Source: an uncultured Acidobacteriota bacterium (GTDB taxonomy: Bacteria > Acidobacteriota > Thermoanaerobaculia > Multivoradales > UBA5704). Taken from it: a stretch of DNA of 64,000 bases. The stretch spans positions 1,355,170 to 1,419,169 of the forward strand of contig CAWCYZ010000004.1 in assembly GCA_963799925.1 (NCBI GenBank). Direction: 5' to 3'. The position numbers and the translations under genes were made by a program. Positions 3,001-20,984 of this stretch are shown piece after piece. Position 1 is the first letter of the stretch. The number at the start of each line of letters is the position of its first letter. The notes beneath the pieces were generated by a model that worked only from the letters and a program-made list of their open reading frames with translations, was not told the origin of the DNA and ran no database searches.

Positions 3001-6000
3001 GCCGCGTGGCGAGGAGCGAATGGCCGCCGGCGGCGAAGAAGTCGTCTTCGAGGCCGACCCGCGGCAGCCCGAGGACCTCGCTCCACAGGCCGGCGACGAG
3101 CTCCTCGATCGGCGTCCGCGGCGTCCGCGGCGTCCGCGGTCCCGCCGTCTCGCCGGCCCGCCACTCCGGCGCCGGCAGGCGCCGGAGGTCGAGCTTGCCG
3201 TGGGAGGTCAGCGGCAGCTCCGGCAGCGCGACGAAGGCCGCCGGGACCATGTAAGCGGGAAGGCGGAGGGCGAGGTGGGCGCGGAGATCCGCCGCGAGGT
3301 CCGGGGCGAGGGCGGCGGCATCGGGTAAATCCGCGGCGAGCGCCGCGGCAGGGCCGCCGTCCTGCCGCGGGACGACATAGGCCACCAGCCGCGGGCCCTC
3401 GCCATCTCCGGCCCCGGCCCCGGCCGCCGCCGCCACGACGGCCGCCACCGCGACCGCCGGGTGCTCGGCGAGCGCCGCCTCGACCTCGCCGGGCTCGATG
3501 CGGAAGCCGCGGATCTTCACCTGCTGGTCGAGGCGGCCGAGGAACTCGAGCTCGCCGGAGGCGAGGAAGCGCGCGCGGTCTCCCGAGCGCAGCCAGCGCC
3601 GGCCCTCCGCGGCGACGAACCTCTCCGCCGTCAGCTCCGCGCGGCCGAGGTACCCGCGCGCCACGCCGGCGCCGCCGATCCACAGCTCGCCGGCGACGCC
3701 GATGGGCTGCGGCCGGCCGCCGGCGTCGCGCACGCCGACCTCCACGTTGCCGAGGGGCCTGCCGAGGAGCGAGCGGGTCGGGGGCTCGCCCGGGCCGATC
3801 GTCCAGGAGGTGGCGAGGATCGTCGCCTCGGTCGGCCCGTAGAGGACGCGGATCGCCGCCGCCGGGAACGCCGCGCGCATCTCGCGGAGGAGGTCGAGCG
3901 GCACGGTGTCGCCGCCGACGAGGAGGGTCCGCAGGCCCGCCGCGGCGAACCCGCGGCTCCGCACTGCCGCGGCGAGGGCGCGGCGCCGCGCCGCCGCGGC
4001 GACCTGGCGCATCAGGGCCGGCACCGCGTGGAGATGGGTGAGCTCCGGGAGGCCGCCGACCAGGGCCTCGACGTCGAGCGCCGGCAGGAGAGGCACGAGG
4101 ACGGCCGAGCCGCCGGCGACGAGCGGCGCCAGCAGCTCGAAGAGGAAGATGTCGAAGGAGAACGGCGCCACGACGGCGCCGGCGTCGCCCGCGCGCCAGC
4201 CGAATTCGTCGCGGCTCGCCGCGAGCAGGTTGGCGAGGCTGCCGTGCTCGACGGCGACGCCCTTCGGCCGCCCCGTCGATCCCGAGGTGTAGATCACGTA
4301 GGCGAGGTCGGAGGGCGCCGGCAGTGCCGCGCCCTCCGGCGCGGCGAGCATCGGAAGCTCCGCGCCCTCCGGCGCGGCGGGCATCGGAAGCTCCGCGCCC
4401 TCCGGCGCGGCGGGCATCGGAAGCTCCGCGCTCTCCGGTGCGGAGGCCGCCGAGAGGTCCTCCGCGTCGTCGAGCGCCAGGGTGGCGGCGCCGTGCGCGG
4501 GGAGCGAGCGGAGGAGCGCCTCCTCGCCCACGACGACCGACGGCGCGGCGTCTCCCAGGACGAAGCGCAGGCGCTCGGCGGGATAGCCGGGATCGAGCGG
4601 CAGGAAGGCGCCGCCCGACTGGAAGATGGCGAGGAGGCCGGCGGCGAGGTCGGGCGACCGCTCGGCGCAGAGGCCGACGCGATCCCCCGGCCGCACGCCG
4701 AGCCGGCGGAGGCGCCGCGCCAGATGCCCCGCCCGCGCCGCGAGCGCCCCGTAGGTGACCGCCACGGCGCCGGAGCGCAAGGCGACGGCCGCCGGCGTCC
4801 GCGCCGCCTGGGCGGCGAAGAGGCCGACGACGGTCTCCGCCGCCGCGGATGGCCGGAACGAGCTGTCGCTCCACTCGACCACGAGCTGCGCCCGCTCCGC
4901 CGCGGAGAGGAGCGGCAGGTCGGCGGCGCGCCGGCCGGGCTCGGCGGCGAGCCCGGCGAGCCGGCGCGCCAGATGGCCCGCCAGGCGGTCGATCGTCGTC
5001 GCGTCGAACAGCTCGCGGCGGTAGCGCAGGCGGAGGACGAGGCCCTCTCCCGCCACCTCCTCCGCCTCGATCTCCAGCTCGAGCTTGGCGAGGCCGCCCG
5101 CCTCGGGCAGCCGCGCCGGCGCGAGGCCGGGGAGCGCCAGCCGCTCGGCGGGGGCGTTCTGCAAGGCGAAGAGCGCCTGCACGAGCGGCGCGCGGCCGAG
5201 CTCGCGCTCCGGCGCCAGCGCCTCGACCAGCCGCTCGAAGGGCAGCCGCTGGTGCGCGAAGGCGCCGAGGCTCGCCTCCCGCGCCCGTGCCACCAGCTCG
5301 GCTCCGGTGGGCTCGCCCGCGAGGTCGGCGCGCAGCACCAGGGTGTTGACGAAGAGGCCGATCAGCCCCTCGACGTCCAGCCGCCCGCGGTTGGCGACCG
5401 GCGTGCCGAGGAGGAGGTCGTCCTGCCCGCAGTGGGCGCCGAGGAGCGACTCGACGCCCGCCAGGAGCATCATGAAGAGCGTCGCCCCCTGGTCGCGCGC
5501 GAGCGCCTGGAGGTCGGCCGCCAGGGCGTCCGGCAGGGTCAGCCGGCGGAGGCCGCCGCGGAGGTCGGGGGCGGCCGTGCGCGGCCGGTCGGTGGGCAGG
5601 TCGAGGACGGCGGGCGCTCCCTCCAGGCGCTCGCGCCAGTAGGCGATCTGGCGCTCGAGCGCCGCGCCGGCGAGCTCGCGGCGCTCGCGGGCGGCGTGGT
5701 CGGCGTACTGGAGCGGCAGCTCCGGCAGGACGCCCGCCAGGCTGGCGGACTGGCGGCCGGATTGGTAACCAGGTTCGAGGGCGGCGCCGTAGAGCGCCGA
5801 CAGCTCGCGGACGAAGACGGCGATCGACCAGCCGTCGGCCGCGATGTGATGGAAGGTCGCGAGGAGGACGTGCTCCTCGTCCGCCAGACGGAGGAGCGCC
5901 GCGCGGAGCGGCGGCCCGGCCGCGAGGTCGAACGGGCGGAGCGCCTCGGCGGCGGCGAGCCGCGCCGCCTCGCCGGCGCGGCGGGACGGGGCGAGCGGCG

Positions 6001-9000
6001 CCAGGTCGACGACGGCGAGCCAACCCACGGGACGGGCGGCGACGACGGCGAGGGGCTGGCCGTCGCGCTCGCCGTAGGAGGTCCGCAGGATCTCGTGGCG
6101 CGCCGCGATCGCCGCCAGGCTCGCGGCGAGGGCGGGGACCGAGAGGCGGCCGCGCAGCTCGACCGCGGCGGGCAGGTTGTAGAGCGCGCTCCCCGGCTCC
6201 AGGCGGTCGAGGAACCAGAGCCGCTCCTGGGCGAAGGAGAGCGGCGCCTCGCCGACGCGGCGCTCCCCCCGCACCGGTGGCGCGTCGCCGCCGGCCCCTT
6301 CGACCCCATCGACCCCGTCCCCGGCGCGCGCCGCCCGCTCCACCGCGAGCGCCAGCGCCGCGACGGTCGGCGACTCGAAGAGAGCGCGGAGCGGCAGCTC
6401 GAGGCCGAGCTCGGCGCGCACCCGCGCGAGCGCCCGCGCGGCGAGGAGCGAATGGCCGCCCAGGGCGAAGAAGCTGTCGTGGATGCCCACCGCCGCGATC
6501 CCCAGCACCTCGCCGAAGATGGCGGCGAGGCGCGCCTCGAGCGGCGTCCGCGGCGCGACCGGGGGCGCTCCGTCGCTCCACTCCGGCTCCGGCAGCCGCC
6601 GGCGGTCGAGCTTGCCGTTGGGGGTCCGCGGCAGCTCGGGGAGGAGGACGACGGCGGCGGGCACCAGGTGCTGCGGCAGGCGCAGGGAGAGGTCCCGGCG
6701 GAGCGACTCGGCCGTCGCCGCGGAGCCCGGCTCGCCCCCGGGCGCGAGGACTGCGTAGGCGACGAGGCGCAGCTCGGCAGTACCCGGCGGGCCCGCCGGG
6801 CGCGCCACCACCGCCGCGGCGCCGACGCCGGGGAGGGCTTCGAGCGCCGCCTCGACCTCGCCGGGCTCGACGCGGAAGCCGTGGATCTTCACCTGGTGGT
6901 CGACGCGGCCGAGGAACTCGAGCTCGCCGTCCGGCCGCCAGCGGGCGAGGTCGCCGACGCGATAGAGGCGCCGGCCGGGGGCGGCGGCGAAGGGATCGGG
7001 GAGGAAGCGCTCGGCGGTCAGCTCGGGCCGGCCGAGGTAGCCGCGCGAGACGCTGCGGCCGCCGATCCACACCTCGCCGGCGACGCCGGCGGGCACCGGC
7101 GCGAGGCCCGGGCCGAGGAGGTGCACGCGGGAGCCGGCGATCGGCCGGCCGATGGTGGGCGCCGGCGGCTCGCCGCCGGCGGCGAGCGGCGCCGCCCACC
7201 AGGTCGAGCAGGTGGTGGCCTCCGATGGTCCGTAGAGGTTGACCAGGCGCGTCGCCCGCGTCCGCCGCCGGATCGCCTCGGCGAGGCTCGGAGTCAACGG
7301 CTCGCCGCCGAGGCTCACCGTCCGCACCGAGGCCGGCACCCGGCCGCCACCCACCAGCTCGGCCATCGCCGAGGGGACGGTGTCGACGAGGGTGACGCGA
7401 TCGGCGGCCGCCAGCTCGGGAAGCTCGAGGGCGCTCGCCGCGAGCACCACGGCGCCGCCGCTCGCGAGCGGCACGAAGATCTCGAAGATCGAGAGGTCGA
7501 AGCAGATCGAGGTGGCGGCGAGGACGCCCGCCAGCTCCTCGGCGGAGAAGACGCTCCGCGCCCACTCGACGAAGACGACGGCCGTCGCGTGCTCGATGGC
7601 GACGCCCTTCGGGCGGCCGGTCGAGCCCGAGGTGTAGATGACGTAGGCGAGGTTGCCGGGGAGCGGCCCGTGCTGGGCACCGGCAGCGAGGGTCGGCGGC
7701 GCCGCGGCGGCGGCTTCCGCCTCCTCGATCACGATCACCCGCAGGCCCTCCTCCGGCACCCGGCCGCGGAGCGCCGCCTGGGTGACGAGGACGGTCATGC
7801 CGCTGTCGGCGGCGGTGAAGGACAGGCGGTCGCGCGGATAGGCGGGATCGAGGGGGACGTAGGCGCCGCCCGCCGCGAGCACCGCCAGGAGGGCGACGAT
7901 CATCGCCGGCGTGCGCTCGAGGCAGATCCCGACGCGCACCTCGGGGCCGACCCCCGCGGCGCGGAGGACCGCCGAGAGGCCGGCGACCCGGCGGGCGAGC
8001 TCGCGGTAGGTCAGCTCCTCGCCGGCGGCGACGAGCGCCGTCGCCTCCGGCGTGCGCGCCGCCTGGAGGGCGAACAGCTCGTGCAGGCAGACCGCCTGGG
8101 GCGGCGCCTCGCCCTCGCCGCCGCCCCAGGCGGCGAGCTGCGCCCGCTCGGAGGGCGAGAGGAGGGGCAGCTCCCACACCCGCGCCGCGGGGTCCGCCGC
8201 CATGCCGTCGAGGAGCGCCGCGAAGTGCCCGAGGAGGCGCTCGGCGGTGGCGCCGTCGAAGAGGTCGGCGTTGAAGGTGAGCGCCGCGGCGAGGCCGGCC
8301 GGCTCGCCGCCCGCCGTCTCGCCCGGCAGGAGGCCGCAGGCGAGCGTCAGGTCGAGCTGGGCGCCGCGCGGGGCGAGCGGCAGCGGCGCCAGGCGAAGGC
8401 CGCCCAGATCTAGCTCGAGGCCGCCCAGCTCGAGGTCGAGGCTCCCGGTTCCTCCGGCAGCCCCCGCGGCGCCGAGCGCCAGCGCGGCGAGGCGCTCGCC
8501 GAGCGGCCCGCGGCCGCCCTGGAGCACCAGCATCGCCTGGAAGATCGGCGACCGCGAGGGATCGCGCTCGGCCGCCAGGCGCTCGGCGAGGAGCGGAAAG
8601 GGAAGCTCCTGATGGGCGAAGGCGGCGAGCGCCGTCCGCCGCGTGCGCGCCAGGAGCTCGGCGGCGCTGGGGTCGCCTGAGAGGTCGGCGGCGAGGACCA
8701 CCGGATTGACGAAGTAGCCGACAGCGCCGGCGAGCTCGGCCGTGCCGCGCCCGGAGGTCGGGGTGCCGAAGAGCGGCTCGTCCTGCCCGCTCGTCCGCGC
8801 GAGGAGGGCGCCGAAGCCGGCCGCCAGGGTGACGAAGAGGGTGGCGGACTCGGCGCGGCCGAGCTCGCGCAGGCGGCGGGTGAGATCGGCCGGCAGGCGG
8901 GCCGTCCGCCAGTCGCCGCGGAAGCTCTGCGCCTTGCCGCGTGGGTGGTCGGTGGGGAGCTCGAGCACCTGCGGCTTGTCGGCCAGCGCGGCGCGCCAGA

Positions 9001-11770
9001 AGGCGAGGAGGCGCTGGGTCTCGGCGTCGGTGGAGCGATGCGCCGTGGCGTAGGGGGGCCGCGGCGCCGGCGGCAGCGCGGCTTCGGCGGCTTCGGCGCC
9101 TGTCGGCGACGGCGGCTCTCCCCGCGCCGCGGTACAGCCGGGCGAGCTCGCCGAGGAGCACCTCGACGGACCAGAAGTCGGCGGCGATGTGATGGACGGC
9201 GAGCCACAGCACCGGCTCCCGGCGGCCCCGCGCGACGAGGCCGGCACGGAGGAGCGGCCCGGCGGCGAGGTCGAACGGCCGGTAGGCGCGATCGGCGAGG
9301 CGCCGCGCCAGCTCCTCGTCGCTCCAGGCGGCGCCGTCCTCCTCCAGCCATTCGACGGGCGGTCCGGCGATCGGCCGCGGCGCCGGCTCGCCGGCCGATT
9401 CCGCGAAGACCGTGGAGAGCGCCGGATGGCGCGCCGCGAGAGCGAGGAGCGCGGCATGGAGGGCGTCAACGTCGACGTCGCCCACGACGCGCGCCGCGCC
9501 GGCGAGCACGTAGGCGGCGCTCTCCGGCGCCAGGCGATCGAGGAGCCAGAGCGCGCGCTGGCCGGGCGAGACGGCCCCCGGCGCGCCGTCCTCAGCACCG
9601 GCTCCGGCGGCCGGCGGGTCGTCGGCCAGACGCCGCAGCACCTCGCCGGCGAGGTCGGCCGGCGTGGCGCCCTCGAGCAGCCAGGCCATGGGGAGGGCGA
9701 CGCCGAGCTCCGTCTCGACGACATGGGAGAGCTCGATCGCCTTGAGCGAGTCGAGGCCGCTCGCGGTCAACGGCCGGTCGTCTGCGAGCTGCCCGGAGGG
9801 AAGGCCGAGGATTCGCGCCAGCCGACCGCCGAGCACCGCGGCGAGCGCCGGCCGCCGCGCCTCGACCGGCACCGCGAGGAGCATCTCCCGCGCCGCGGGA
9901 AGGGCGGGCTCGTCCGCTTTCCGCTCGGCCGCCGGCGCCGGCTCGGCAGCTCTCTCCCCCCCGCCGGCCGGCCGGCGAGCTGGGAGGCCAGGCTGCCGTC
10001 GAGATAGGCGGCGCGACAGGCGCGGCGCTGTACCTTGCCGCTCGAGGTCTTGGGGACCGCGCCCTCACGCACCAGCAGGAGGTCGTAGAGCTGCGCCTCG
10101 TGCTCGGCGGCGACGGCGGCGCGCGCCGCGTCGGCGATCTCGCCCAGGTCTTTCGCGTGGCGGTCGACCTCCTGCACGACGACGAGCCGCTCGGCGCCGT
10201 CGAGGTCGGCGGCGAACGCCGCGCCGCAGCCCGGGCGCATCGAGCGATGGCTCGCCTCGACGGTGCGCTCGATGTCCTGCGGGTAGAGGTTCCTGCCGCG
10301 CAGGATGATGAGGTCCTTGAGGCGGCCGGTGACGAAGAGCCCGCCGGCGGCGTCGGCGAAGCCGAGGTCGCCGGTGCGGAGGTACGGCTCGCCGTCCCTG
10401 GTGCCCGCGGCGCCCGCGGCGGCCGGGTCCGCCGTCCGATCCGCGGCCCGATTCGCGGCCCGATTCGCGGCCGACACCAGCCGGCCGCCGAAGTCGCGCG
10501 CCGTCTCCTCGGGGCGCCGCCAGTAGCCGCCGGCGACGCTCGGCCCGCGCACCCAGATCTCGCCCACCTCGCCGGCGCCGAGCGGGCGGCGCGACTCGGG
10601 CTCGACGATCGCCACCTCCTGGCCGAGCCAGGCCGTGCCGCAGCCGACGAGCGTGCGCGCCGCCTCGCCGTCCGCGGCCGCGACGGCGCGCCCCTGCTCG
10701 AGCGGCGCCGCCGCGACGCTCGCGATCGGCGGCCCCGTCGAACCGCGGGGCGGCCCGGCGACGAAGAGGGTCGCTTCGGCCAGGCCGTAGCAGGGGTACC
10801 AGGCGCCGGCGCGGAAGCCCACCGGGCCGAAGCGCCGGGCGAAGCGCTCCAGGGTCTCGGCGCGCACCGGCTCGGCGCCGTTGAAGGCCACCTCCCAGCT
10901 CGCGAGGTCGAGCCGCGAGCGCTCCTCGTCGTCGATGCGGGAGGCGCAGAGCTCGTAGGCGAAGTTCGGGCCGCCCGAGGTCGTCGCCCGGTAGCGGCTG
11001 ATCGCCTGCAGCCAGCGCGCCGGCCGCTGCAGGAAGGCGACGGGCGACATCAGCACCGCCCGCGCGCCCAGGTAGAGGGGCTGCAGGACGCAGCCGATGA
11101 GGCCCATGTCGTGGTAGAGCGGCAGCCAGCCGACGACGACCGAGCGCACCGACTGGCCGAAGGCGCGGCGGATCATCTCCTCGTTGTGGAGGAGGTTGCG
11201 ATGGCTCACCATGACGCCCTTGGGCGCCGCGGTCGAGCCGGAGGTGTACTGCAGGAAGGCGAGGCTCTCGGCGGTGATCGCCGGCTGGCGCCAGGCGTCG
11301 GCCGCCGCCGGATCGAGGGCGTCCGTCGCCACCAGGGTCAGGGCGTCGAAGGCCGCCGCGCCCGGCCCCATCGCCCGCAGCTGGGGGAGGAGCGAGGACT
11401 CGGTGAGGGCGAAGCGCGGCCGGGCGTCGGCGGTGACGGCGAGGAGGCGAGGCAGGGTGCGGGCGGAGCGCGGCGGGTAGGCGGGCACGGCGACGACACC
11501 GGCATAGAGGCAGCCCAGGAAGGCGGCGACGAACTCGAGGCCGGGGGGATAGAGGAGGAGGGCGCGCTCGCCGGCGGCGCCCCGCGCCTGGAGGTGGGCG
11601 GCGATCGTCCGCGCCCGGCGATCGAGGTCGGCGAAGGTGAGCGTCGCCGCCTCCTCGCCCGCCGCGTCGAGGAAGGTGTAGGCCCTCGCCTCCGGGCTCT
11701 CCGCGGCGCGGGCGCGGAGCACCTCGACGAAGGTGGGAAGCGCCATCCGAGAGCTTGAAGAGGGAGTCAT
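1..11770 (-). CDS. FAAL-initiated NRPS, partial at the window start and interrupted by several frameshifts. Domain order FAAL-ACP-C-A-T-C-A-T-C-A(partial); lipopeptide-type loading module.
   Basis: FAAL segment is ORF 9767..11770, aa 1-590 ([47 protein letters not shown]). ACP (SGLDSLKAIEL) and the start of a C domain (HHIAADFWS) form the N-terminal ~300 aa of ORF 2565..9884; the rest of that ORF is off-frame. Hand translation of the reverse strand gives the A3 core LAYVIYTSGSTGRPK at 7607-7651 and 4262-4306, and LAYVIYTSGSTGKPK at 821-865. T-domain cores: FFALGGHSLL at 6449-6490 and FFAAGGHSLL at 3009-3052. C1 motifs: LSFAQERLWFLD at 2765-2806 and 6203-6235. GLIGLFVN at 5345-5371 and QRLLAFWRAAL near 9000. 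C-domain HHIVSDGWS lies in ORF 1159..2568. Frame changes occur near 9960 (C8 run), about 9085 (gcttcggcg duplicated), about 2540 (caggccgctgag duplicated) and about 1230. The true frame runs open to the window edge, so it is not in the ORF track. Confidence 0.85.
4328..4445 (-). repeat. In-frame 33-bp tandem repeat, about 3.3 copies, encoding AELPMPAAPEG repeats in the variable loop just upstream of the A3 core of NRPS module 2
   Basis: cgccctccggcgcggcg(a/g)gcatcggaagctccg occurs three times, at 4328-4360, 4361-4393 and 4394-4426, followed by a diverged partial copy. The equivalent position in module 1 (about 7690-7740) has no repeat. Confidence 0.75.
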
Positions 11771-12136
11771 TCAGCCGCGGCCCGAAGGCCTGTAAGTCTC
11801 GAGAAATGTTCTGTTTAGTAAGGGCAATCGACGTCTCTCGCCTCGCCAAGAGCACAGTGTCCAAAAGGAGTCAAACGTGACAGGGGCGGCCCGGTGGCGG
11901 GGGCGTCGCCCACCCCGGCCACGAGCTGCGAGTCTACGGCTGGACGGCGCGCGAGCGGCCGCTCGTCTGCGTCCCACCGACGGCTCGGGCTACGCCGCGG
12001 GCTCGCGCTTCGGCGGGACAGTGAGGCCGCCGTTCACGCTCAGCGAGCCCGACGGAGCCCCCCGCCTGGGGTCACCGGGGCGTCATGGATGTTGGAGCGA
12101 TGGACAACACTCCCCCGTGTTGTTATCATCTCCAAC

Positions 12137-12418
12137 ATGAAGGCCGAGCCGCTGTTCCGTGAGCGGCAAATCGTCGCCGCAGACGCGTTCGTGGAATTGG
12201 TGGTGTGGCAGGTTCCCAGGCCAGCGCCTGGCAGTGCGCACGGTTTCAAGTATCGGTTGGCTCTCGTGGTGAACGGCGTGTGTGTGCTGCGCTACGACAA
12301 CGAGGCGGGCAAGGGTGATCACAGGCACCTCGGTGGGGAGGAAGCTCCTTACTCTTTCACCACGCCGGCACAACTGCTCGCCGACTTCTGGAACGACGTG
12401 GACCCGTGGAGATCCTGA
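12137..12418 (+). CDS. DUF6516 / TumE-like small protein (putative toxin-antitoxin-like toxin component), 93 aa
   Basis: ATG at 12137 inside ORF 11894..12418. Sequence VVWQVPRPAPGSAHGFKYRLALVVNGVCVLRYDNEAGKGDHRHLGGEEAPYSFTTPAQLLADFWNDV resembles the conserved YDNE-GKGDHRH core of DUF6516/TumE proteins as I recall them. Stop codon lies 2 nt before the next gene. Local GC about 58-60% versus about 72% in the flanks. Confidence 0.5.
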   Translation: MKAEPLFRERQIVAADAFVELVVWQVPRPAPGSAHGFKYRLALVVNGVCVLRYDNEAGKGDHRHLGGEEAPYSFTTPAQLLADFWNDVDPWRS

Positions 12419-12419
12419 T

Positions 12420-12761
12420 ATGCATACCGTGACCCTGGAAGTCTCAACTCGCGAGGAGGCCGATCGCCGTTTCCTGCGCGCCGTCGAGGGCCAACCCCAA
12501 GGGGCGTTCATCAGCTTCGAGACCCCAGCGTTATTGTTCAAGGTGTTGACGCAGAAGCGATGGGAGCTGCTTTCAGCCATGACGGGTGAGGGTCCCATGA
12601 CCTTGCGTGAGGCGGCCCGCCGGGTCGGGCGGGACGTGAAAGCCGTGCACGGCGACGTTCATGCGCTGCTCACCGTCGGAATCCTGCAAAAGACAGCTGC
12701 AGGCCGGATCGTGTTCCCGTTCGATGCCGTGCGCGTCAATTTTGTGCTGCAGGCGGCCTGA
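12420..12761 (+). CDS. Small HTH DNA-binding protein of the HVO_A0114/TumA type (putative partner of the TumE-like gene), 113 aa
   Basis: ATG at 12420, in frame with ORF 12282..12761. Candidate helix-turn-helix segment MTLREAARRVGRDVKAVHGDVHALLTVGIL. Tight coupling to the upstream gene (1-nt spacer) is typical of two-gene toxin-antitoxin-like cassettes. Confidence 0.45.
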   Translation: MHTVTLEVSTREEADRRFLRAVEGQPQGAFISFETPALLFKVLTQKRWELLSAMTGEGPMTLREAARRVGRDVKAVHGDVHALLTVGILQKTAAGRIVFPFDAVRVNFVLQAA

Positions 12762-12846
12762 TCCATGGGGCTCGGGCGGCGCTGGCGCCCCGACCATCTC
12801 TCTGCTGGATGGTGGAGGAAGCGCGAGGACGGCCTGACGAGAGCGG

Positions 12847-13212
12847 TCATCCCGGATCGTTCGGGTTGGGCTTCGGGGCGGCGTCGCCTTCGGGGGGCGG
12901 CAGGGGGATGGCGGCGAGGCGGCAGCCGGCGGCCAGGATCGTGGCCAGGAAGGCCACGGTGATCGCCAGGCTGGTGCCCTGCCAGAGACCGCCGAACCAC
13001 CGGCGGAGCTCGTAGGCGAAGACGTTCGCCTGGCCGCCGTACATCTCCAGCTGCCGGAGGGACTGTTTGCTGTCCTCCATGTTGCCCAGGGGATCTTCGG
13101 GCGGCGGCGCGGCGGTCCGGTAGATCACCAGGGCGGCGAGGAGACCGGCGATCAGGATCGCGTGGCTCAGGATGCGGAGCGTCCTGGTGCGCGCGGCTGG
13201 TGTGACGCTCAT
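12847..13212 (-). CDS. Small membrane protein, 121 aa, two predicted transmembrane helices; hypothetical
   Basis: ORF 12847..13560 trimmed to Met MSVTPAARTRTL at 13212. The longer N-terminal extension would overlap the start of the LanB-like gene. Hydrophobic stretches ILIAGLLAALVIY and LAITVAFLATILAAG. Transcribed divergently from the first LanB-like gene. Confidence 0.35.
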   Translation of the reverse strand: MSVTPAARTRTLRILSHAILIAGLLAALVIYRTAAPPPEDPLGNMEDSKQSLRQLEMYGGQANVFAYELRRWFGGLWQGTSLAITVAFLATILAAGCRLAAIPLPPPEGDAAPKPNPNDPG

Positions 13213-13457
13213 GCTTGGGTTCCCCCTCGCCGCGTCGCCGGTCGAGAGATCTGCCCGGCGTCCGGCATGCGGGGGGATTCTATGGGGCTCGCAGATCCAG
13301 CGGACCGGGTCGGTCGATTTCCCGTGGGACGGCTCGGCCCGGCCCCGGGCCGCGGCAGCGCTTACGCTCGGCGCGAGAGGCTTACCGGGGGTCGGGCAAG
13401 GCTCATGCTCCGCGCGATAGGCTGACCTCTCCGCGAGGACGGTCAACTTGACGAGGC

Positions 13458-16157
13458 ATGACGACCATGAAGCGCAGCCGAGAACTGCCGGATCCCTCCG
13501 ACTCGCACCTGGAATCTGCGGGCGACCACGCTGCCGGCCGGGGCGATCCCGGTCGCTCACGGCCGGACGCCCCGCTCCCCGGCCATCTCCTGCCGCTGGC
13601 GGGCGAGCCCACCGGCCAGTGGGCGCTCTGGCGCACCTTCGCCGTGCGCGGCGCCGGCTTCCCGGCGGCCGATGTCCTGCGATTGGCGGATGCCGCCTGC
13701 GCGGCGGCGGCCGATCGGCTGAGCGCGGCGGAGGCGGCGGCGGAAAGGCTGCGCCAGACCGCGCTCGAGGTGCTGCGCGGCGAGCTGCCGAGCGTGGGCA
13801 AGAGCCGGCTCGATCCCCGCGTCAAGGCGATCCGGCGCCTCGAGCGGCGGCAGCCCGCCGCGGCCGCGGGGCTCGGCCGGTCCGCGGCGGCGGCGCTCGC
13901 GGCGTGGGAGGAGGCGGCGGCGCGCGCCGCCGCCGAGACGACAGTCTATGAGGCCGCCTTCGCGGCGGCTGAGGACCGCCTCGAACAGGAGCTCCGCGGC
14001 GTCGCCACGAGCCCGCGCTTCCGCGAGGCGGTCGTCTGGCAGAACCGCCATGCCGTCGAGACGGGGCTCGAGCCCTTCCTGCGCCGGCGAGAGGGGGCGG
14101 CCGGCGCCTCGGCCCGTCGCCGCGGGCAGGTCCAGATGATCGCCTCCTATCTCCAGCGCTACTGCACCAAGAACGACTCGATCGGATTCTTCGGTCCGGT
14201 CGGTTGGGGCCGGCTGGGAGAGGGCCGCGAGGCGATCGCCGTCCAGCCCGGCGAGGACCTGCTCGCCTCGCGGCAGGTCTACTTCGAGGAATGGGCGATC
14301 GACGCCATCGCCCAACGGCTCGCGGCGGACGTGGCGATGCGCCCCTGGCTCGCCCCCCGGCGCTCGCCGTACCTGCGGCGGGAGGGCGATGGTTACCTCA
14401 CGCCGAACGGCGCCAGGATCGAGCTCGGTCCGCTCTCCGGCGCCCTCATCGCCGCCTGCGACGGCACGCGCTCGGCACGCGTGCTGCTGCGGGAGCTGGG
14501 TCCGGCCCTCACCCCCGACCAGGAGGCGACCCTGTGGGGGCTGCTCGCCGACTTCCACGCCAAGGGCCTGATCCGCTGGTCGTTCCAGATCCCGCTGTCG
14601 ATGACCGCCGAGCGCACGCTGCGGGACCTGCTCCTGGAGGTCGAGGAGGAGCCGCTGCGCGAGGGCGCCCTCGCGCTCCTCGACGAGGTCGTCCGCGCGC
14701 GCGACGAGGTTGCCCGTGCGCGCGGCGACGCCGAGGCGCTCGGGCGCGCCCTCGCCGAGCTCGAGGCGACCTTCACGCGCGCTACCGGCCGGCTCGCGAC
14801 GCGCGGCGACGGCCAGCTCTATGCGGGACGCACGCTGATCCACGAGGACTGCCGGCGCGACCTCGACGTCGAGCTCGGAGCGCCCTTCCTGGCCGAGATC
14901 GCTCCGGCCCTCGGCCTCGTCCTCGATAGCGCCCGCTGGATCACCCAGCTCGTCGCGCGGAGCCACCGGGAGCGTTTCGAGGCGACCTACGCGCAGCTGA
15001 GCCGCGACCGAGGCACGCCGCAGGTCGACCTGCTGAGCTTCGCCCGCGCCGCCGTACCGCTCCTGCTCAACCGGGAGACCCGCCAGATGCTCGAGCGCGA
15101 GATGCAGGACCGGTGGGAGAGGGTCTTGCAGATCCCGGAGGGGGCGCGGCGGATCGTGCGCAAGAGCGCCGAGCTCGGCCCGCGGGTGGCCGAGGAGTTC
15201 GCCGCGTCCAGCGCCGGATGGGTCAAGGCGCGCTACCACAGCCCCGACCTCCTCATCGCCGCTCCCAGCGTCGAGGCGATCCGGCGGGGCGACTACGAGG
15301 TCGTCCTGGGAGAGCTGCACGTCGCCATCAACACCCTCGATCGGGCGGTCCTCTTCTCGCAGCACCCCGAGCCCGAACGGCTCCGCGCCGCCATCGAGTC
15401 CGATCTGCCGGAACCGTGCGTGATTCCGGTGCTGCCCAAGTGGGGCCAGGAGGAGGCGGTGGCGGGGCTCGGCTTGCCGATCTGGGCGGCCAACGGCCGG
15501 CTGGACCTCGCTCTGCGCTCGCCGAAGGACTTCTACCTCGACCTCTCGCTCGACCCTCCCGGCTTCCCGCCCTCGCAGGTCCTGCCGGTCGGCGAGCTCG
15601 TCGTCGAGGCGGCCGACGGCGGCCTGGTCGTCGCGACCCGCGAGGGCGGCGCCCGCTTCGACGTCATCGACTTCTTCCAATTCGTCCTGATGGCGCAGGT
15701 CATCAGGGCCTTCCGCGTGTCGCCCCCCGGCAGCCACACGCCGCGGGTCACCATCGACCGGCTGGTGGTCAGCCGCGAGAGCTGGAGCTTCGCTACCGGC
15801 GGGCTCGGCTGCGCTCAGGAGCCGACCGCGCCGCGGCGCTTCGCCGCGGTCCGGCGCTGGGCGGCAGAGCACGAGCTGCCGCGTTTCCTCTTCGCCAAGC
15901 CGCAGAACGAGGGGAAGCCGTTCTACGTCGATCTCGAGAGCCCGGTCCTCGTCGAGGTCCTCGCCAAGGCCGTCCGCGGCGCGGCGAAGGCGGACCCGCG
16001 AACGCCGATCCACCTCTCCGAGATGTTGCCCGGCCACGATCAGCTCTGGCTGCCCGATTCCCAAGGCAACCTCTACACCGCCGAGCTGCGGATGGTGGCA
16101 CTCGATCTGGCGCGTCCAGGGGAGCCGGGAGTGCGGACGACGAAGTCGGAGGGGTGA
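13458..16157 (+). CDS. LanB-family dehydratase N-terminal (glutamylation) domain protein lacking the C-terminal elimination domain; PEARL (peptide aminoacyl-tRNA ligase) / split-LanB-like, 899 aa
   Basis: Intact 899-aa ORF. LanB-like signatures: N-terminal WALWRTFAVRGAGFPAADVL (compare the FxxRTPLLP region of LanB) and YLQRYCTKNDSIGFFGPVGWGRL (compare LanB RYxxRxxxRxTPFGLFAGV). The size matches Lant_dehydr_N-only proteins such as TglB-type PEARLs and thiopeptide split dehydratases, with no SpaB_C-like C-terminal part. A paralog lies 2.2 kb downstream. Confidence 0.6.
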   Translation: MTTMKRSRELPDPSDSHLESAGDHAAGRGDPGRSRPDAPLPGHLLPLAGEPTGQWALWRTFAVRGAGFPAADVLRLADAACAAAADRLSAAEAAAERLRQTALEVLRGELPSVGKSRLDPRVKAIRRLERRQPAAAAGLGRSAAAALAAWEEAAARAAAETTVYEAAFAAAEDRLEQELRGVATSPRFREAVVWQNRHAVETGLEPFLRRREGAAGASARRRGQVQMIASYLQRYCTKNDSIGFFGPVGWGRLGEGREAIAVQPGEDLLASRQVYFEEWAIDAIAQRLAADVAMRPWLAPRRSPYLRREGDGYLTPNGARIELGPLSGALIAACDGTRSARVLLRELGPALTPDQEATLWGLLADFHAKGLIRWSFQIPLSMTAERTLRDLLLEVEEEPLREGALALLDEVVRARDEVARARGDAEALGRALAELEATFTRATGRLATRGDGQLYAGRTLIHEDCRRDLDVELGAPFLAEIAPALGLVLDSARWITQLVARSHRERFEATYAQLSRDRGTPQVDLLSFARAAVPLLLNRETRQMLEREMQDRWERVLQIPEGARRIVRKSAELGPRVAEEFAASSAGWVKARYHSPDLLIAAPSVEAIRRGDYEVVLGELHVAINTLDRAVLFSQHPEPERLRAAIESDLPEPCVIPVLPKWGQEEAVAGLGLPIWAANGRLDLALRSPKDFYLDLSLDPPGFPPSQVLPVGELVVEAADGGLVVATREGGARFDVIDFFQFVLMAQVIRAFRVSPPGSHTPRVTIDRLVVSRESWSFATGGLGCAQEPTAPRRFAAVRRWAAEHELPRFLFAKPQNEGKPFYVDLESPVLVEVLAKAVRGAAKADPRTPIHLSEMLPGHDQLWLPDSQGNLYTAELRMVALDLARPGEPGVRTTKSEG

Positions 16158-16216: not shown

Positions 16217-16981
16217 CTAGCGCCTCCGCCACGGCAGCGAGTCCGCCACCACCCAGGCGGCGCCCATCACGGTGAGATTGAGGACATTCTCGCTCAGGAC
16301 CGTATGGCTGGAGGGAGCGGCCAGGAGCATCGGCCCGTGCACCAGCAGGGTGAAGGACGCGAACATGGCGGTCAGCAGGATCGTGGCGAGGCGGGCTTGC
16401 ACGCCGGTCAGGATCGCAATGCCCGCCGCGATGAGGCCAACCCCGGTCGCATAAGCCCAGAACTCTTGCGAAGGCGGCAGCCATTTGGGGACCAGAGGGG
16501 CGGTGAGGTTCAGGTAGAAAAAATGCGCTCCGCCGAACAGCAGCGCGCAGAGCCCGAAGGCCAGTTGGCCCAGGCGCGTGAGGCGTGCGGCCAGGGCCGC
16601 ATCGATCTTGGCGCTGGCGGCGTAGACGATCAGGCCGCCCGCCGCGATCGCGAGCTGCTCGGCGGCGCCGCTGTAGGCGCCGAACTCGGCGTAGTGGGCG
16701 AGCACCACGCGGCCGTACATCAGGATGACGACGATGAGCGCGTAGTAAGCGGTGAGCGCCGCGGCGCCCCAGGCCGTGGTCCGACGCCACTCGACGGCCG
16801 CGCCCGCGACGAGCAGGAACGCAGCGGCGGCATAGGCCAGGGCGGTGCGGGCGGGAAAGTCCTTGGGCACCGGCTGCCCGAGGTCGAAGTTCCCCCACGC
16901 CAGGCAGACCATGCCCAACGCCATCACGCCCAGGCCGTACACGCGCCAGCCGAAGGCCATCGGCGTCTTTTCCGCGGTCAT
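16217..16981 (-). CDS. Polytopic integral membrane protein, about 254 aa, 7-8 predicted TM helices; unknown family
   Basis: ORF 16217..17077 trimmed to MTAEKTPMAFGW at 16981, with a GGTGA 8 nt upstream. Hydrophobic segments throughout (GLGVMALGMVCLAW, LAYAAAAFLLVAGAAV, YYALIVVILMYG, LAFGLCALLFGGAHFFYL, GVGLIAAGIAILTG, LTAMFASFTLLVHG). Convergent with the first LanB-like gene. Confidence 0.55.
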   Translation of the reverse strand: MTAEKTPMAFGWRVYGLGVMALGMVCLAWGNFDLGQPVPKDFPARTALAYAAAAFLLVAGAAVEWRRTTAWGAAALTAYYALIVVILMYGRVVLAHYAEFGAYSGAAEQLAIAAGGLIVYAASAKIDAALAARLTRLGQLAFGLCALLFGGAHFFYLNLTAPLVPKWLPPSQEFWAYATGVGLIAAGIAILTGVQARLATILLTAMFASFTLLVHGPMLLAAPSSHTVLSENVLNLTVMGAAWVVADSLPWRRR

Positions 16982-17129
16982 GAATTTTTCACCCGCGACT
17001 ATACAACTAGCCGGCCAGCTCTGACGTCCCCGGCCGGTGGGCCGCACCATGACCTTGATCGCCTGGCGCTCGTTCATCGCCCGGTAGCCGTCGGGAACCT
17101 CGTCGAGGCGGATGGCCCGGGAGAGCTCG

Positions 17130-17640
17130 GCGCGCGGCGTGGTAGCTCGGCGCGCGGCGCGGTAGCCCAGCGCATCGAGCGGAAACCCGGCGCGCGGTGC
17201 GGTAGCCCAGCGCGCGGCCGGGAAGGCGAGCGCATCGAGCGGAAGCCCAGCGCGTGAACGGGAGAACGAGCGCGCGGCCGGGAAGCCCGGCGCGCGAACG
17301 GGAAGCCGGGCGCGTGAACGGGAAGCCGGGCGCGCGAACGGGAGAGCCGAGCGCGCGGCCGGGAAACCCGGCGCGCGACGGAGCGAGCGGAAGAGTGCGG
17401 GTCTTCCGGGAAGAGACGGCGCCTAAGAGGAAAAAATGAGTTTTTCCCGGAAGAGGGAAGGGCGCAACCGGAAGGCGTCAACCCTTCCCGGAAGAGCTCG
17501 CGAGCGGCGGGAAAACCCCGGCTCTTCCCGGATAACCACGGCTCTTCCCGGAAAAGGGCGGGCGGGAAGGGGAAGAGCCGGGCCCTTCCCGGAAGAGGGC
17601 GCGCGCCGCGGGAAGACGCGAGCCCTTCCCGCCGGCTCAG
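17130..17640. repeat. Non-coding degenerate tandem-repeat array made of two repeat families
   Basis: Family A, 17130-17400: about 20-bp units such as gcgcgcgaacgggaagccgg and gcgcgcggcgcggtagcccag, repeated about 8 times. Family B, 17400-17640: 7 copies of CTTCCCGGAAGAG-like units spaced about 25-35 bp apart, with core palindrome TTCC-C-GGAA. An AT-rich hairpin ggaaaaaa-tgag-tttttcc sits at about 17449-17470. The only ORFs across this region are Arg-rich repeat artefacts. Confidence 0.7.
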
Positions 17641-18017
17641 TTCACCGGCGGCCCGTCGGCCTTCGCCGCGGCGGCGGCCGAGCGGCGGCGGCGGGGGTGG
17701 CGCCGCCGCGGCGCGACGCCGAACGCGACCAACCGGTCGCTCTCGAGCCCCAGGGAGCCGCGCAGGAGCGCCGCGAGCTGGTTGCGCAGGGCGCGGCCCT
17801 GGGCGAGCGCGGTCCTCCGCGCGTGGTGGGTCTCCCGCAGCCTCGCCTCGTGCTCGAGGCTCTCCTCCTCGAGCGCGAGGGCGCGCGCGACGGGCGCCGA
17901 GAGGGCGGCGTGGAGCTCCCGCAGGTGGGGCATCTCCGCGAGCACCGCCGCCATGTTGTCCACCGTCACCCGCCAGGCGGCGATGCTCTCCTTGTAGGTC
18001 AACGGCCTGACCGGCAC
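17637..18017 (-). CDS. Hypothetical small protein, 126 aa, predicted coiled coil with an Arg-rich C-terminus
   Basis: ORF 17637..18017. High GC3 codon bias and a non-repetitive sequence (MPVRPLTYKESIAAWRVTVDNMAAVLAEMPHLRELHAALSAP...) argue that it is coding. No recognisable family. Confidence 0.35.
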   Translation of the reverse strand: MPVRPLTYKESIAAWRVTVDNMAAVLAEMPHLRELHAALSAPVARALALEEESLEHEARLRETHHARRTALAQGRALRNQLAALLRGSLGLESDRLVAFGVAPRRRHPRRRRSAAAAAKADGPPVN

Positions 18018-18412
18018 GGCGCCTCCCTCCTCCTCGCTCGCGGTACAGGATCGACCGCGGGATCGTCGCCGAAGAGGCCGTGCGTGTCAACCGGAGTTGG
18101 CGCTGAAAAATCCTCCGGCCGCGGGTGTCTTAAGCTGGGGTTCGCTCTCGCTCACCCCGGCCTACGCGCCTACGGCCGCCCTCGCCCGTAACCCCTCCTC
18201 GCCGCCGCCTGCCAGGCGCTCCGCGGCCGGGCGCTGCCGCTCGACGCCAGCCCTCACGCCGGGGCCTGGCTCGCGCTCTGCGGCGGCTTTCGGATGTCAC
18301 GTCTGGACTCGGTTGCCCACTATCCATAGGTAGATACAGCGGATGACGGCCTCTCGGCACAGGAGAGGCCGGATCAGGGGCGCGCCGCCCGCCTTCACCC
18401 TCCGGACGAGGC

Positions 18413-20984
18413 ATGGTCATCATGAATCGAAGCGCAGATCATCTCGTGCCGCTGCCCGGCGAGACCATCAGCCCATGGGCGCTCTGGCGCACCTTCGCCG
18501 TGCGCGGCGCCGGCTTTCCGGCGGCCGACGTCCTGCCGATGGCGGATGCCGTCTGCGCGGCGGCGGCCGACCGGCTGGGCGCGGTGGAGGAGGAGGCGGA
18601 GAGCCTGCGCCAGGCCGCCCTCGAGGCGTTGCGCGGCGAGCTGGCGAGCGCCGACAAGAGCCGGCTCGATCCCCTCGTCAAGGCGATCCAGCGCCTCAAG
18701 CGGCGGCAGCTCGCCTCTACGGCCGGGCTGGCCGGGCTGGCCCAGCCGACCGGCGGCGGCGCTCGATTCCTGGGCGGCGGCGGCCCGGCGCGCCGACGCC
18801 GAAAAGGCCGCCTATGAGGCCGTCTTCGCGGCGGCCGAGGACCGCCTCGAGCCGGCGCTCCGCGGCGCCGCCGAGGACCCGCGCTTCCGCGAGGCGGTCG
18901 TCTGGCAGAACCGCCACGCCATGGAGACGGGGATCGAGCCCTTCCTGCGCCGGCGGGAGGGGGCGGCTGGCCGCTCGGCCCGTGATCGCGGTCACGCCCA
19001 GATGGTCGCCTCCTATCTCCAGCGTTACTGCACCAAGAACGACACGATCGGGTTCTTCGGTCCGGTCGGCTGGGGCCGGCTGGGAGAGGGCGACCAGCCG
19101 ATCGCCGTCCAGCCCGGGGAGACTCTGCTCGCCGCGCGGCAGATCTACTTCGAGGGCTGGGCGATCGACGCCATCGCCCAACGGCTCGCCGAGGAGGATG
19201 CGATGCGCCCCTGGCTCGCCCCCCGGCGCTCGCCCTACCTGCGGCGGGAAGGCCAGGGTTACGTCACGCCGAACGGCGCGCAGATCCAGCTCGGCCCGCT
19301 CTCGAGCGCCCTTTTGGCCGCTTGCGACGGCACCCGCCCCGCCCTCGTGCTGCTGCGCGAGCTGAGCCCGGACCTCGCCCCCGACCAGGAGGAGGTCCTC
19401 CTGGGGATGCTCGCGGGCTTCCATGACAAGGGCATGATCCGCTGGTCGTTTCAGATCCCGCTGTCGATGACCCCCGAGCGCACGCTGCGGGACCTGCTCC
19501 TCGCGATCGAGGAGGAACCGCTTCGCGAGCGCGCCCTGGCGCTCCTCGACGAGATGGTCCGCGCGGCCGACGAGGTGGGCCGCGCCCGCGGTGATGCCGA
19601 GGCGCTCCGGCGCGCTCTCGGCGCGCTCGAGGCGACCTTCACGCGCGCCACCGGCCGGCTGGCGACGCAGGCCGACGGCAAGCTCTATGTGGGACGCACG
19701 CTGGTCCACGAGGACTGCCGGCGCGACCTCGACCTCGAGCTCGGAGCGCCCTTCCTGACCGCGATCGCTCCGCCCCTCTCTCTCGTCCTCGCCAGCGCCC
19801 GGTGGTTCACCCAGCGCATCGCCCGAGGCTACCGCGAGTGTTTCGCGGCGACCTACACGAAGCTGAGCGGCGAGAGGGGCTCGCGGCAGATCGACCTCTT
19901 GAGCTTCGCCCAAACCGCGTTGCCGCGCCTGGTCAACCGGGAAACCCGGCAGATGCTCCAGGGCGAGCTGCAGGCCCGGTGGGACAGGGTCCTCGCGATC
20001 CCGCCGGGGGAACGGCGGATCGTCCGCCGCAGCGCGGAGCTGCGAGCGCTGGTGGCCGAGGAGTTCGCGGCGCCCGGCCCCGGCTGGGTCAAGGCGCGCT
20101 ACCACAGCCCCGACCTCCTCATCGCCGCTCCCAGCGTCGAGGCGATCCGGCAGGGCGACTACGAGGTCGTCCTGGGAGAGCTGCACGTCGCCATCAACAC
20201 CCTCGATCGTGCGCTCTTCTTCGCCCAGCACCCCGAGCCCGAACGGCTCCGCGCCGCCATCGAGGCCGATCTGCCGGAACCCTGCTTGATTCCGCTGCTG
20301 CCCAAGGCGTGGAGCCCGGAGGAGGTGGTGGAGGGGCTCGGTCTGCTGGTATGGGCGATCAACGGCCGGATGGACCTCGCCCTGCGCTCGCCGAAGGACT
20401 TCTACCTCGACCTCTCGCTCGACCCTCCCGGCTTCCCGCCCGCACAGGTCCTGGCGATCGGCGAGCTGGTGGTCGAGGAGGCCGAGGGCGGCCTCGTCGT
20501 GGGGACCCGCGAGGGCCGTGTCCGCCTGGACGTCCTCGACTTCTTCCAATTCGTCCTCATGGCGCAGGTCATCAGCACGTTCCGCCTGCTCCCCTCCGGG
20601 AGCCACGCGCCGCGGGTCACCATCGATCGCCTGGTGGTCAGCCGCGAGAGCTGGGTCCTCAAGGCCGGCGAGCTCGACTTCGCCCGGCAGCCGACCGCGC
20701 CGGGGCGTTTCGCCGCGGCCCGGCGCTGGGCGGCAGGGCTCGGGTTGCCGCGCTTCCTCTTCGCCAAGCCGCAGAACGAGGGGAAGCCGTTCTACGTCGA
20801 TCTCGAGAGCCCCATCCTCGTCGAGATCCTCGCCAAGGCCATCCGTAGCGCGGCGAAGGCGGATGGGCACGATCTGGTCCATCTCTCCGAGATGCTGCCC
20901 GCCCATGGCCAGCTCTGGCTGCCCGATTCCCAAGGCAACCGCTACACCGCCGAGCTGCGGATGGTGGCCCTCGATCTCTCGTGA
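18413..20984 (+). CDS. Second LanB-N-terminal-domain-only (PEARL/split-LanB-like) paralog, interrupted by a 1-nt frameshift near 18745
   Basis: ORF 18413..18817 carries the N-terminus (MVIMNRSADHLVPLPGETISPWALWRTFAVRGAGFPAADVL). The gene continues in ORF 18546..20984 from about 18760 (AAYEAVFAAAEDRLEP...). Roughly 75-80% amino-acid identity with the 13458..16157 protein along the whole length, including YLQRYCTKNDTIGFFGPVGWGRL. The frameshift lies in the ggccgggctggccgggctgg repeat. Confidence 0.6.

Follow-up and report, generated by a model that had tools for sequence, protein, structure and literature searches.

A phased array of short palindromes adjoins the gene of a small basic helical protein in an Acidobacteriota genome and recurs beside related genes

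Several described systems place a tandem array of protein-binding sites beside the gene of the protein that reads it. In the F plasmid, sopC lies immediately downstream of sopB and consists of 12 palindrome-bearing units of 43 bp, whereas R1 parC, the site of ParR, has 10 iterons of 11 bp. The incC and incA iterons of P1, which are 19 bp long, flank repA, and the origin of phage lambda carries 19-bp palindromic iterons for the O protein next to an AT-rich stretch. Here, we describe a repeat block in 64 kb of DNA from an uncultured Acidobacteriota bacterium (contig CAWCYZ010000004.1 of assembly GCA_963799925.1; this whole stretch of 64,000 nucleotides is called the window below). The block abuts the gene of a basic protein of 126 amino acids, ORF126. 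We propose, from the sequence, that it is a phased array of double-stranded DNA sites for the adjacent ORF126 protein and thus the cis partner of its gene, and we put the probability of this reading at about one half. The pair of gene and array is most like the plasmid centromere and iteron arrays that adjoin the gene for the protein that binds to them (F sopC/SopB, R1 parC/ParR, P1 incA/RepA, and lambda ori/O), but it belongs to none of them because the protein fold is different, a partition NTPase or Rep protein is missing, and the pair is not found on plasmids.

Like the centromere arrays, the block is built of tandem helically phased units, many of them with a short palindrome, and lies beside the gene of a small to medium-sized protein that binds DNA, putatively so in the case of ORF126. 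The unit sequence is specific to each protein variant, and a site in or near the promoter would permit autoregulation. In contrast to ParB and SopB, which have a helix–turn–helix (HTH), and to ParR, which has a ribbon–helix–helix (RHH), ORF126 is unrelated to these proteins in sequence and predicted fold. No ParA-, ParM-, or TubZ-type NTPase was called next to the pair at any of the 10 independent loci that we compared (the window and nine other loci with a member of the ORF126 family). The loci appear chromosomal, and tblastn gave zero matches to the family in the plasmid (72,556 records) and phage collections. The ORF126 array also has more units (26), and these are more degenerate. With iteron arrays, it shares units of ~19–22 bp, roughly two helical turns, a position on either side of the binding-protein gene, and an AT-richer patch within or next to the array. 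However, the Rep and O initiators are winged-helix proteins of 25–40 kDa (~250–350 amino acids), whereas ORF126 is a helical protein of 14 kDa that matches no Rep family, and there are no rep, par, or other replicon genes nearby. Unlike in an iteron origin, the only AT-rich patch is a degenerate unit of 21 bp, and no DnaA boxes were noted, for which no separate search was made. The small MerR-like protein BldC from Streptomyces multimerizes cooperatively, head to tail, on direct repeats whose number varies (PMC5859096). ORF126, as proposed here, would likewise be a small protein multimerizing along a variable number of short repeats. BldC has a MerR-type HTH without a coiled coil and its target repeats are scattered in promoters, whereas ORF126 has its array of 26 units beside its own gene.

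The repeat block is real and non-random, and chance is not its explanation. A print-out in 20-bp register resolved the non-coding interval (Table 1) into one continuous array of ~26 consecutive 20-bp units. Tandem Repeats Finder (TRF) gave periods of 20, 40, and 60 bp over 17124–17631, with degenerate units (~75% matches), and the start-to-start spacing in the repeat-family search was 20 bp throughout. All three analyses thus found the block where the preliminary description had placed it. A GGAAG-type core (CTTCC on the minus strand, which is the gene strand) begins at 17160, 17180, 17200, 17220, 17240, 17280, 17300, 17320, and 17361 and, further on, at 17388, 17408, 17448, 17469, 17489, 17509, 17549, 17570, 17590, and 17610. 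These cores keep a 20-bp phase from 17160 to 17610 with a single break of 27 bp (17361–17388), so that the two juxtaposed repeat families described previously are two halves of one phased array. A 7-nt half-site (CTCTTCC or GGAAGAG, with weaker forms) recurs every 20 bp, i.e., about every two helical turns, and therefore lies on the same face of the helix. The half-sites are direct repeats in the half distal to ORF126 (part B), which has a partial higher-order period of 60 bp and a period of exactly 20.0 bp over 17160–17340. In the proximal half (part A), whose first unit touches the stop codon of ORF126, they form inverted pairs. The pairs of part A yield TTCCCGGAA palindromes as well as interrupted palindromes of the form GGGAAGAG-N5-7-CTCTTCCC. 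Five of the TTCCCGGAA palindromes are exact (17404, 17444, 17485, 17545, and 17586) and two are degenerate (17525, TTCCCGGAT; 17626, TTCCCGCCG), and the earlier count of seven identical TTCC-C-GGAA palindromes is corrected accordingly. Their spacing, previously given as 25–35 bp, is 40, 41, 40, 20, 41, and 40 bp, multiples of the 20-bp unit. We favor the view that such contiguous palindromes of 9–10 bp at two-turn spacing suit a dimeric protein that binds double-stranded DNA.

Within the 64-kb window, TTCCCGGAA or its complement TTCCGGGAA occurs five times, always within 17404–17594, against an expectation of 0.2, and 0 of 100 shuffles reached five. In the data examined the motif is therefore not ubiquitous, as it would be under the simple sequence bias considered in the preliminary description; in the window it is confined to the array. 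The 20-bp unit has no match elsewhere in the window either, and as a dispersed repeat (repetitive extragenic palindrome/bacterial interspersed mosaic element, or variable-number tandem repeat of the mycobacterial interspersed repetitive unit type) it has no other copy there and no related array in the GTDB representatives. The AT-rich hairpin reported for this region exists, but it is just a degenerate GGGAAGAG-N-CTCTTCCC unit of 21 bp with both arms altered together (GGAAAAA/TTTTTCC). A coding repeat was rejected because the period of 20 bp is not divisible by 3 and because translation in any of the six frames gives Arg/Pro/Ala-rich nonsense, which agrees with the earlier judgment that the ORFs called over the block are artifacts. 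A CRISPR array, which requires repeats of 23–50 bp with spacers, was rejected because the units are contiguous 20-bp repeats without unique spacers.

The pairing of gene and array recurs outside the window, in unrelated soil bacteria. An array of at least 5 units (5 to 26) with a period of 20–21 or 40–42 bp was found at most ~0.7 kb from the family gene in 8 of the 10 loci, namely, the window, L092, L093, L094, L001, L098, L100, and L099. The array is downstream of the gene in seven of these eight and upstream in L099. TRF arrays with a period of 18–45 bp numbered seven in the 12.5 kb that lie no more than 800 bp from the genes versus four in the other 101 kb. No other neighboring gene is common to the 10 loci. 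The pairing is seen with five different repeat-sequence classes in unrelated genomic contexts, including loci without DoxX or LanB genes, both of which occur in the window. In L092 (61% amino acid identity), 5.6 units of 40 bp (GGGAAGAGCCGG..CTTCCCGCTAGCGG..TTTAGT) start 18 bp past the stop codon and are followed at 841–1022 by a second repeat family, CGCGCG..AGCY, analogous to part B of the window. In L093 (~45% identity), GAAGAG-N5-CTCTTCC units at 20-bp spacing run from directly after the stop codon to the contig end. The gene and array are separated by a terminator-like hairpin, read from the sequence, in L001, L094, L098, and L100. The two members of the P0005 subfamily carry units of 21/42 bp with CCCGATCGGG and CCGTCAGCCCCAAA (L001) and a related, more diverged 21-bp array that is cut by the contig end (L094). 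Among the more distant members, L098 has 11–13 units with the core TTGAnTCAAATCT, all 11 core matches in its 12.3-kb locus falling at 6480–6703 and 20–21 bp apart; L100 has 21-bp units around GGGTCGACCC; and L099 has at least eight 20-bp units (TTGTGCGCCGGCGCTTCGCG), also cut by the contig end. The remaining two distant members have only a 2-copy repeat, accompanied in L095 by weak ~21-bp units upstream and alone in L101. L001, in which the entire contig is a palindrome, was counted as a single locus of 7.2 kb. Its contig (ENA ERZ25039588 contig_73476) is over 1–14461 a 14.5-kb inverted repeat about ~7190 with arms 85–100% complementary, which is a fold-back artifact of long-read assembly or a hairpin-ended element.

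What is kept across these arrays is the period (20–21 bp), and the sequence is not. Core motifs are spaced 20–22 bp apart in every array; this measure was used because fixed-lag autocorrelation was too sensitive to the 20/21-bp alternation beyond the window and L100. The cores differ (TTCCCGGAA, CCCGATCGGG, TTGAnTCAA, GGGTCGACCC, and GCGCCGGCGC), but all are palindromes of 9–11 bp, and such a palindrome is present in most units. The motif follows the protein tree: GGGAAGAG/CTCTTCCC is common to the window, L092, and L093, CCGTyAgCCCC to L001 and L094, and a TTGyGCGy core to L099 and L095. The window and L092 have the same layout, A then B, with near-identical sequences at the start and at the A/B junction; half-sites are kept between them, whereas the intervening spacers and the number of units differ. 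The conserved period, the palindromes in the units, and the tracking of the protein phylogeny by the motif favor cooperative binding by a dimeric regulator, as the preliminary description had suggested, although it assigned the site to the wrong gene.

The same half-site is found in front of ORF126. A promoter-like block conserved in the window, L092, and L093 reads TTGACAC-N7-CTCTTCG-N2-GACGATCC, with no variation among the three orthologues in the −35 hexamer, in CTCTTCG, or in the −10 region. The CTCTTCG half-site occupies 18070–18076, inside the spacer between −35 and −10. A consensus promoter scan misses this block since its −10 hexamer matches at only three of six positions. In L001, the sole copy of the array core outside the array, aside from the fold-back mirror image, is ~160 bp upstream of the gene. 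These copies suggest that the promoter of the gene is read by whatever reads the array.

ORF126 is a genuine gene and belongs to a large uncharacterized family. The protein has a pI of 11.4, an FG-x-x-PR motif, and an Arg-rich tail. A word-indexed search returned no more than five relatives, two of which are truncated paralogues encoded on the same contig of 2.06 Mb, and a metagenome scan gave only 2 loci. A profile search of 1.84 billion representatives, in contrast, matched 612 proteins at E ≤ 1e-3 and 187 at E ≤ 1e-10, so the family comprises at least 612 clusters at 50% identity; it is widespread in soil bacteria. Nearly all of the 150 listed matches have a length of ~105–165 amino acids. 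The family alignment is ungapped over residues ~6–100, with E-M-P-H-L, L-R-E-x-N, G-x-x-L-R-x-R-L-A, L-R-G-x-x-G, and F-G-x-x-P-R conserved in front of a K/R-rich tail. ORF126 matches the family hidden Markov model over its full length (E = 1e-41), with conserved P30, G74, G90, L96, F99-G100, P103, and basic tail. The family is strongly basic (median pI of 10.2, net charge of +7, and 6 K/R in the 14 residues after FGxxP). An AlphaFold2 model of ORF126 (mean pLDDT of 84–88, ~97 in the long helix) consists of a helix at 8–25, a 60-residue helix at 30–89, a short helix at 94–99, and a disordered tail. Nothing significant was found for ORF126 in Pfam, NCBIfam, PADLOC, PDB sequences, PDB folds, or BFVD. 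Another protein, P0002, is 91% identical and is encoded by a sister genome. The truncated paralogues P0004 and P0189 (107 and 68 amino acids) are 82–87% identical to ORF126 over its C-terminal half, and P0004 owes its N terminus to read-through of the conserved promoter block.

Based on these comparisons, the following mechanism may be envisaged. ORF126 would dimerize or oligomerize through its long helix, and the dimers would bind half-sites via the FGxxPR motif and Arg tail, possibly also via the variable N-terminal helix. The protein could then spread cooperatively along one face of the DNA to form a large nucleoprotein complex, and the single half-site in the spacer of its own promoter would allow autoregulation. 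The array might serve as a high-capacity platform, as do the sopC, parC, or iteron arrays of plasmids. Candidate roles are a titration sink, an anchoring or centromere-like site, a roadblock to transcription or replication, an insulator between genes, and a function in a mobile element.

Several observations weigh against the proposed binding of the array by ORF126. The protein has no recognizable DNA-binding fold such as an HTH, RHH, or winged helix. Genomic context was read for only 10 of the 612 representative clusters, and 2 of the 10 lack a real array. At four-fold degenerate sites, the window and L092 retain 75% identity, so the likeness of their arrays is by itself no proof of selection; for the window and L093, this identity is 68% versus 45% expected by chance. 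A second, unrelated array phased at 20–21 bp (core CTTATCCAGC, ~6 units) lies at 9240–9410 of L098 with no family gene beside it, and phased arrays are therefore not exclusive to the ORF126 family. Lastly, no partner ATPase or other machinery adjoins the gene and array, so the analogy with centromeres is functional only. The second L098 array is located downstream of a gene for a 341-amino acid product, which is ATP-grasp-like by eye and has no Pfam match, and upstream of a histidine kinase gene.

With more reserve, we suggest that the ORF126 family and its arrays of palindromes phased at 20–21 bp could constitute a previously undescribed, self-contained module of protein and DNA, in which a new class of sequence-specific, filament-forming DNA-binding protein has a cognate landing pad. 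Chromosomal anchoring or a centromere-like site, local silencing or insulation, and a mobile-element function are roles that may tentatively be considered for such a module. No description of it was found in the literature, in which TTCCCGGAA appeared otherwise only as the eukaryotic STAT/GAS site. If true, hundreds of small hypothetical proteins would gain a testable function, and a long coiled-coil helix with an FGxxPR/Arg tail would be a new DNA-binding architecture. The loci would also provide natural orthogonal pairs of protein and array, with at least five unit sequences in the same 20–21-bp geometry, that are useful for studies of cooperative nucleoprotein assembly and as parts for synthetic biology.

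A role of the array in RNA rather than in DNA was considered. As the 3′ untranslated region of ORF126 or as a separate transcript, the array could form a series of hairpins (a terminator or stabilizer) or a repetitive RNA bound by the Arg-rich tail, resembling the ToxI repeat RNA of type III toxin–antitoxin systems or a CsrB-type sponge. The array begins at the stop codon without an intervening terminator in the window, L092, and L093, and Arg-rich tails like that of ORF126 are typical of RNA-binding peptides. On both strands, part A folds better than its shuffles (z = −3.7 and −4.3; −4.6 and −3.7 in a second run), and the AT-rich unit retains pairing despite changes in both arms. However, the two strands fold about equally; across the eight arrays no strand is consistently favored in RNA folding, and three lack significant folding. 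Folding was no better than that of shuffles for L001, part B of L092, and the sense strand of part B in the window. A terminator-like hairpin with a T-run stands between gene and array in the four loci named above, the L099 array lies upstream of a promoter-like site, contiguous palindromes of 9–10 bp cannot form stable RNA hairpins, and Rfam gave no match at E ≤ 1 in the array region. Because there is no strand preference, because hairpins separate gene and array, and because the L099 array precedes the promoter, we favor a role at the DNA level and regard a role as RNA as unlikely, although less so for the subfamily of the window, whose array follows the stop codon directly. ToxIN systems also have a short tandem array beside the gene of a small protein, with a terminator between them as in several of our loci. 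The repeats of ToxI, however, are 36 nt long and precede the toxin gene in a common transcript, and ToxN is a β-rich endoribonuclease; ToxN-like toxins are not helical, and the ORF126-family arrays show no strand-specific RNA structure. A type III toxin–antitoxin system was rejected because the array is downstream in seven of eight loci, the strands fold equally or not at all, and PADLOC gave no match. A CsrB/Rsm sponge was rejected because of the absent Rfam match and because the arrays of the other subfamilies lack GGA-type cores.

The array could also be a neutral minisatellite, i.e., a functionless product of slippage or unequal crossover in a long intergenic gap. The degenerate units, the 60-bp higher-order period in part B, and the difference in unit number between the window and L092 fit this explanation, as do the unrelated phased array of L098 without a family gene and the 75% identity at four-fold sites, which allows shared ancestry without selection. 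It does not account for the recurrent pairing with a family gene across five sequence classes and unrelated contexts, for a period of 20–21 bp that is conserved though the sequence is not, for half-sites that are retained between the window and L092 while the spacers differ, or for the same half-site in the promoter. Slippage, invoked in the preliminary description as a hotspot, may explain the change in unit number but not the conserved position, period, and half-site, and we judge a purely neutral origin to be rather improbable.

Another explanation is that the gene and array are the cargo or terminus of a mobile or integrated element, with the units acting as recombinase or transposase sites as at the ends of Tn7 or Mu. 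The array ends exactly at a truncated gene of a Zn-dependent alcohol dehydrogenase (ADH), the source genome has the two further truncated gene copies (P0004 and P0189), and genes for toxin–antitoxin, restriction–modification, abortive infection (Abi), and TIR proteins adjoin family members in L001 and L099. In contrast, none of the 10 loci has a transposase, integrase, or recombinase beside the module, there is one array per module without a matching second end, and the family is absent from the plasmid and phage collections and from one viral-contig scan limited to two narrow peptide patterns. Hence, array units serving as the end of an element seem quite improbable. The truncated ADH gene, the truncated paralogues, and the toxin–antitoxin, restriction–modification, Abi, and TIR neighbors nevertheless hint at a module that is mobile or subject to gain and loss.

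The array was originally read as a promoter or operator at which a dimeric regulator controls the downstream DoxX-like membrane-protein gene; although the array is co-oriented with that gene and lies 140 bp upstream of it with clustered palindromes, this explanation is very improbable because a dead ADH fragment intervenes and makes the juxtaposition secondary, DoxX is absent from every other locus with the module, and no sigma-70-like promoter was detected at 16800–18500.

Table 1 Features of the repeat locus in the 64-kb window
Feature	Position	Strand	Remarks
DoxX/YphA-family membrane protein gene	16217..16981	−	Downstream neighbor, outside the conserved module
Zn-dependent alcohol dehydrogenase remnant, last ~31 codons	17045..17137	−	tblastn to ADH C-termini, E = 2e-4
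Whole array	17118..17632	.	TRF, repeat families, register print-out, core spacing
Part B, distal to ORF126	17118..17385	.	~13 direct-repeat units GCGCGCG-NN-CGGGAAG-CCNG
Part A, abutting the ORF126 stop codon	17386..17632	.	~12 units, inverted half-sites GGGAAGAG / CTCTTCCC
AT-rich hairpin GGAAAAAATGAGTTTTTCC	17429..17449	.	Register print-out; GC dip to 0.58
ORF126, 126 amino acids, small basic all-helical protein	17637..18017	−	Proposed trans-acting partner of the array
Promoter-like block TTGACA-N17-GACGAT upstream of ORF126	18060..18090	−	Conserved in the window, L092, and L093

ORF126 is upstream and the DoxX-like gene downstream of the array, both on the minus strand. The array had been described as lying directly upstream of the membrane-protein gene, but the ADH remnant stands between them. 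The remnant corresponds to residues 315–345 of a 347-amino acid Streptomyces enzyme, and the rest of that gene (~94%) is absent from the 64-kb window. Since the remnant lies at the distal edge of the array, the array ends at a rearrangement junction and came to lie upstream of DoxX only secondarily. The remnant indicates that the module either arrived through a rearrangement or brought one about. Taking the truncated ADH gene together with the truncated paralogues of the same genome, we infer that the module came to this site by a rearrangement that deleted ~94% of the ADH gene. The intervening remnant and the recurrence of the pairing without DoxX therefore favor the array as a conserved partner of ORF126 and not as a promoter or operator that evolved for the DoxX-like gene. 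The block should accordingly not be taken for a regulatory region of the LanB-like or DoxX genes. A scan of 16800–18500 found no intrinsic terminator or sigma-70-like promoter beyond chance.

The start of the membrane-protein gene was assigned correctly in the preliminary description: it gives a product of 254 amino acids, the commonest length among the listed homologues of the more than 3300 found, 120 of which are listed and are 80–91% identical. This conservation across metagenomes is unusually high for a membrane protein. The only named organism among the listed homologues is a gammaproteobacterium (Rudaea). The identification of the flanking genes as LanB-like also holds (Pfam Lant_dehydr_N, E = 1e-32 and 5e-35). 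These two genes are a tandem segmental duplication with 86% DNA identity over 2541 bp. The second copy (18413–20984) is split over two reading frames, residues 43–139 of copy 1 corresponding to frame 2 at 18440–18730 and residues 172–885 to frame 3 at 18837–20981; it is a frameshifted pseudogene or reflects a sequencing error. The truncated ADH gene and the frameshifted second LanB-like copy flag rearrangement within a biosynthetic gene region.

A search of 596 Gb of reference genomes for two palindromes in the arrangement TTCCCGGAA-N(11-41)-TTCCCGGAAGAG gave 90 loci with a match, none of which (0 of 90) encodes a relative of the family. They are mostly single chance matches, coding repeats with periods of 18, 21, and 42 bp, and unrelated arrays (Verrucomicrobiales). 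Several contigs (L023, 40–340; L069, 340–720; L081, 1310–1600, from the Verrucomicrobiales metagenome-assembled genome RYN_621; and L088, 400–580) contain 4–9 tandem units of 41–42 bp, GATTTCCCGGAAAGAAAAGTTAACGAAGCATGCTGTTGGAC, each holding the palindromes TTCCCGGAA and GTTAAC. These units are dispersed and non-coding-looking, are unrelated to ORF126, and have no family gene with them. The window has two further tandem repeats apart from the array. One, at 4327–4443, consists of 3.5 copies of a 33-bp unit (CCGCGCCCTCCGGCGCGGCGGGCATCGGAAGCT) that are 96% identical and lie inside a long minus-strand ORF (1–9766); as the unit is in frame (11 codons), this repeat is probably a recent coding duplication. 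The other is a 27-bp repeat of 2.4 copies at 3937–4002.

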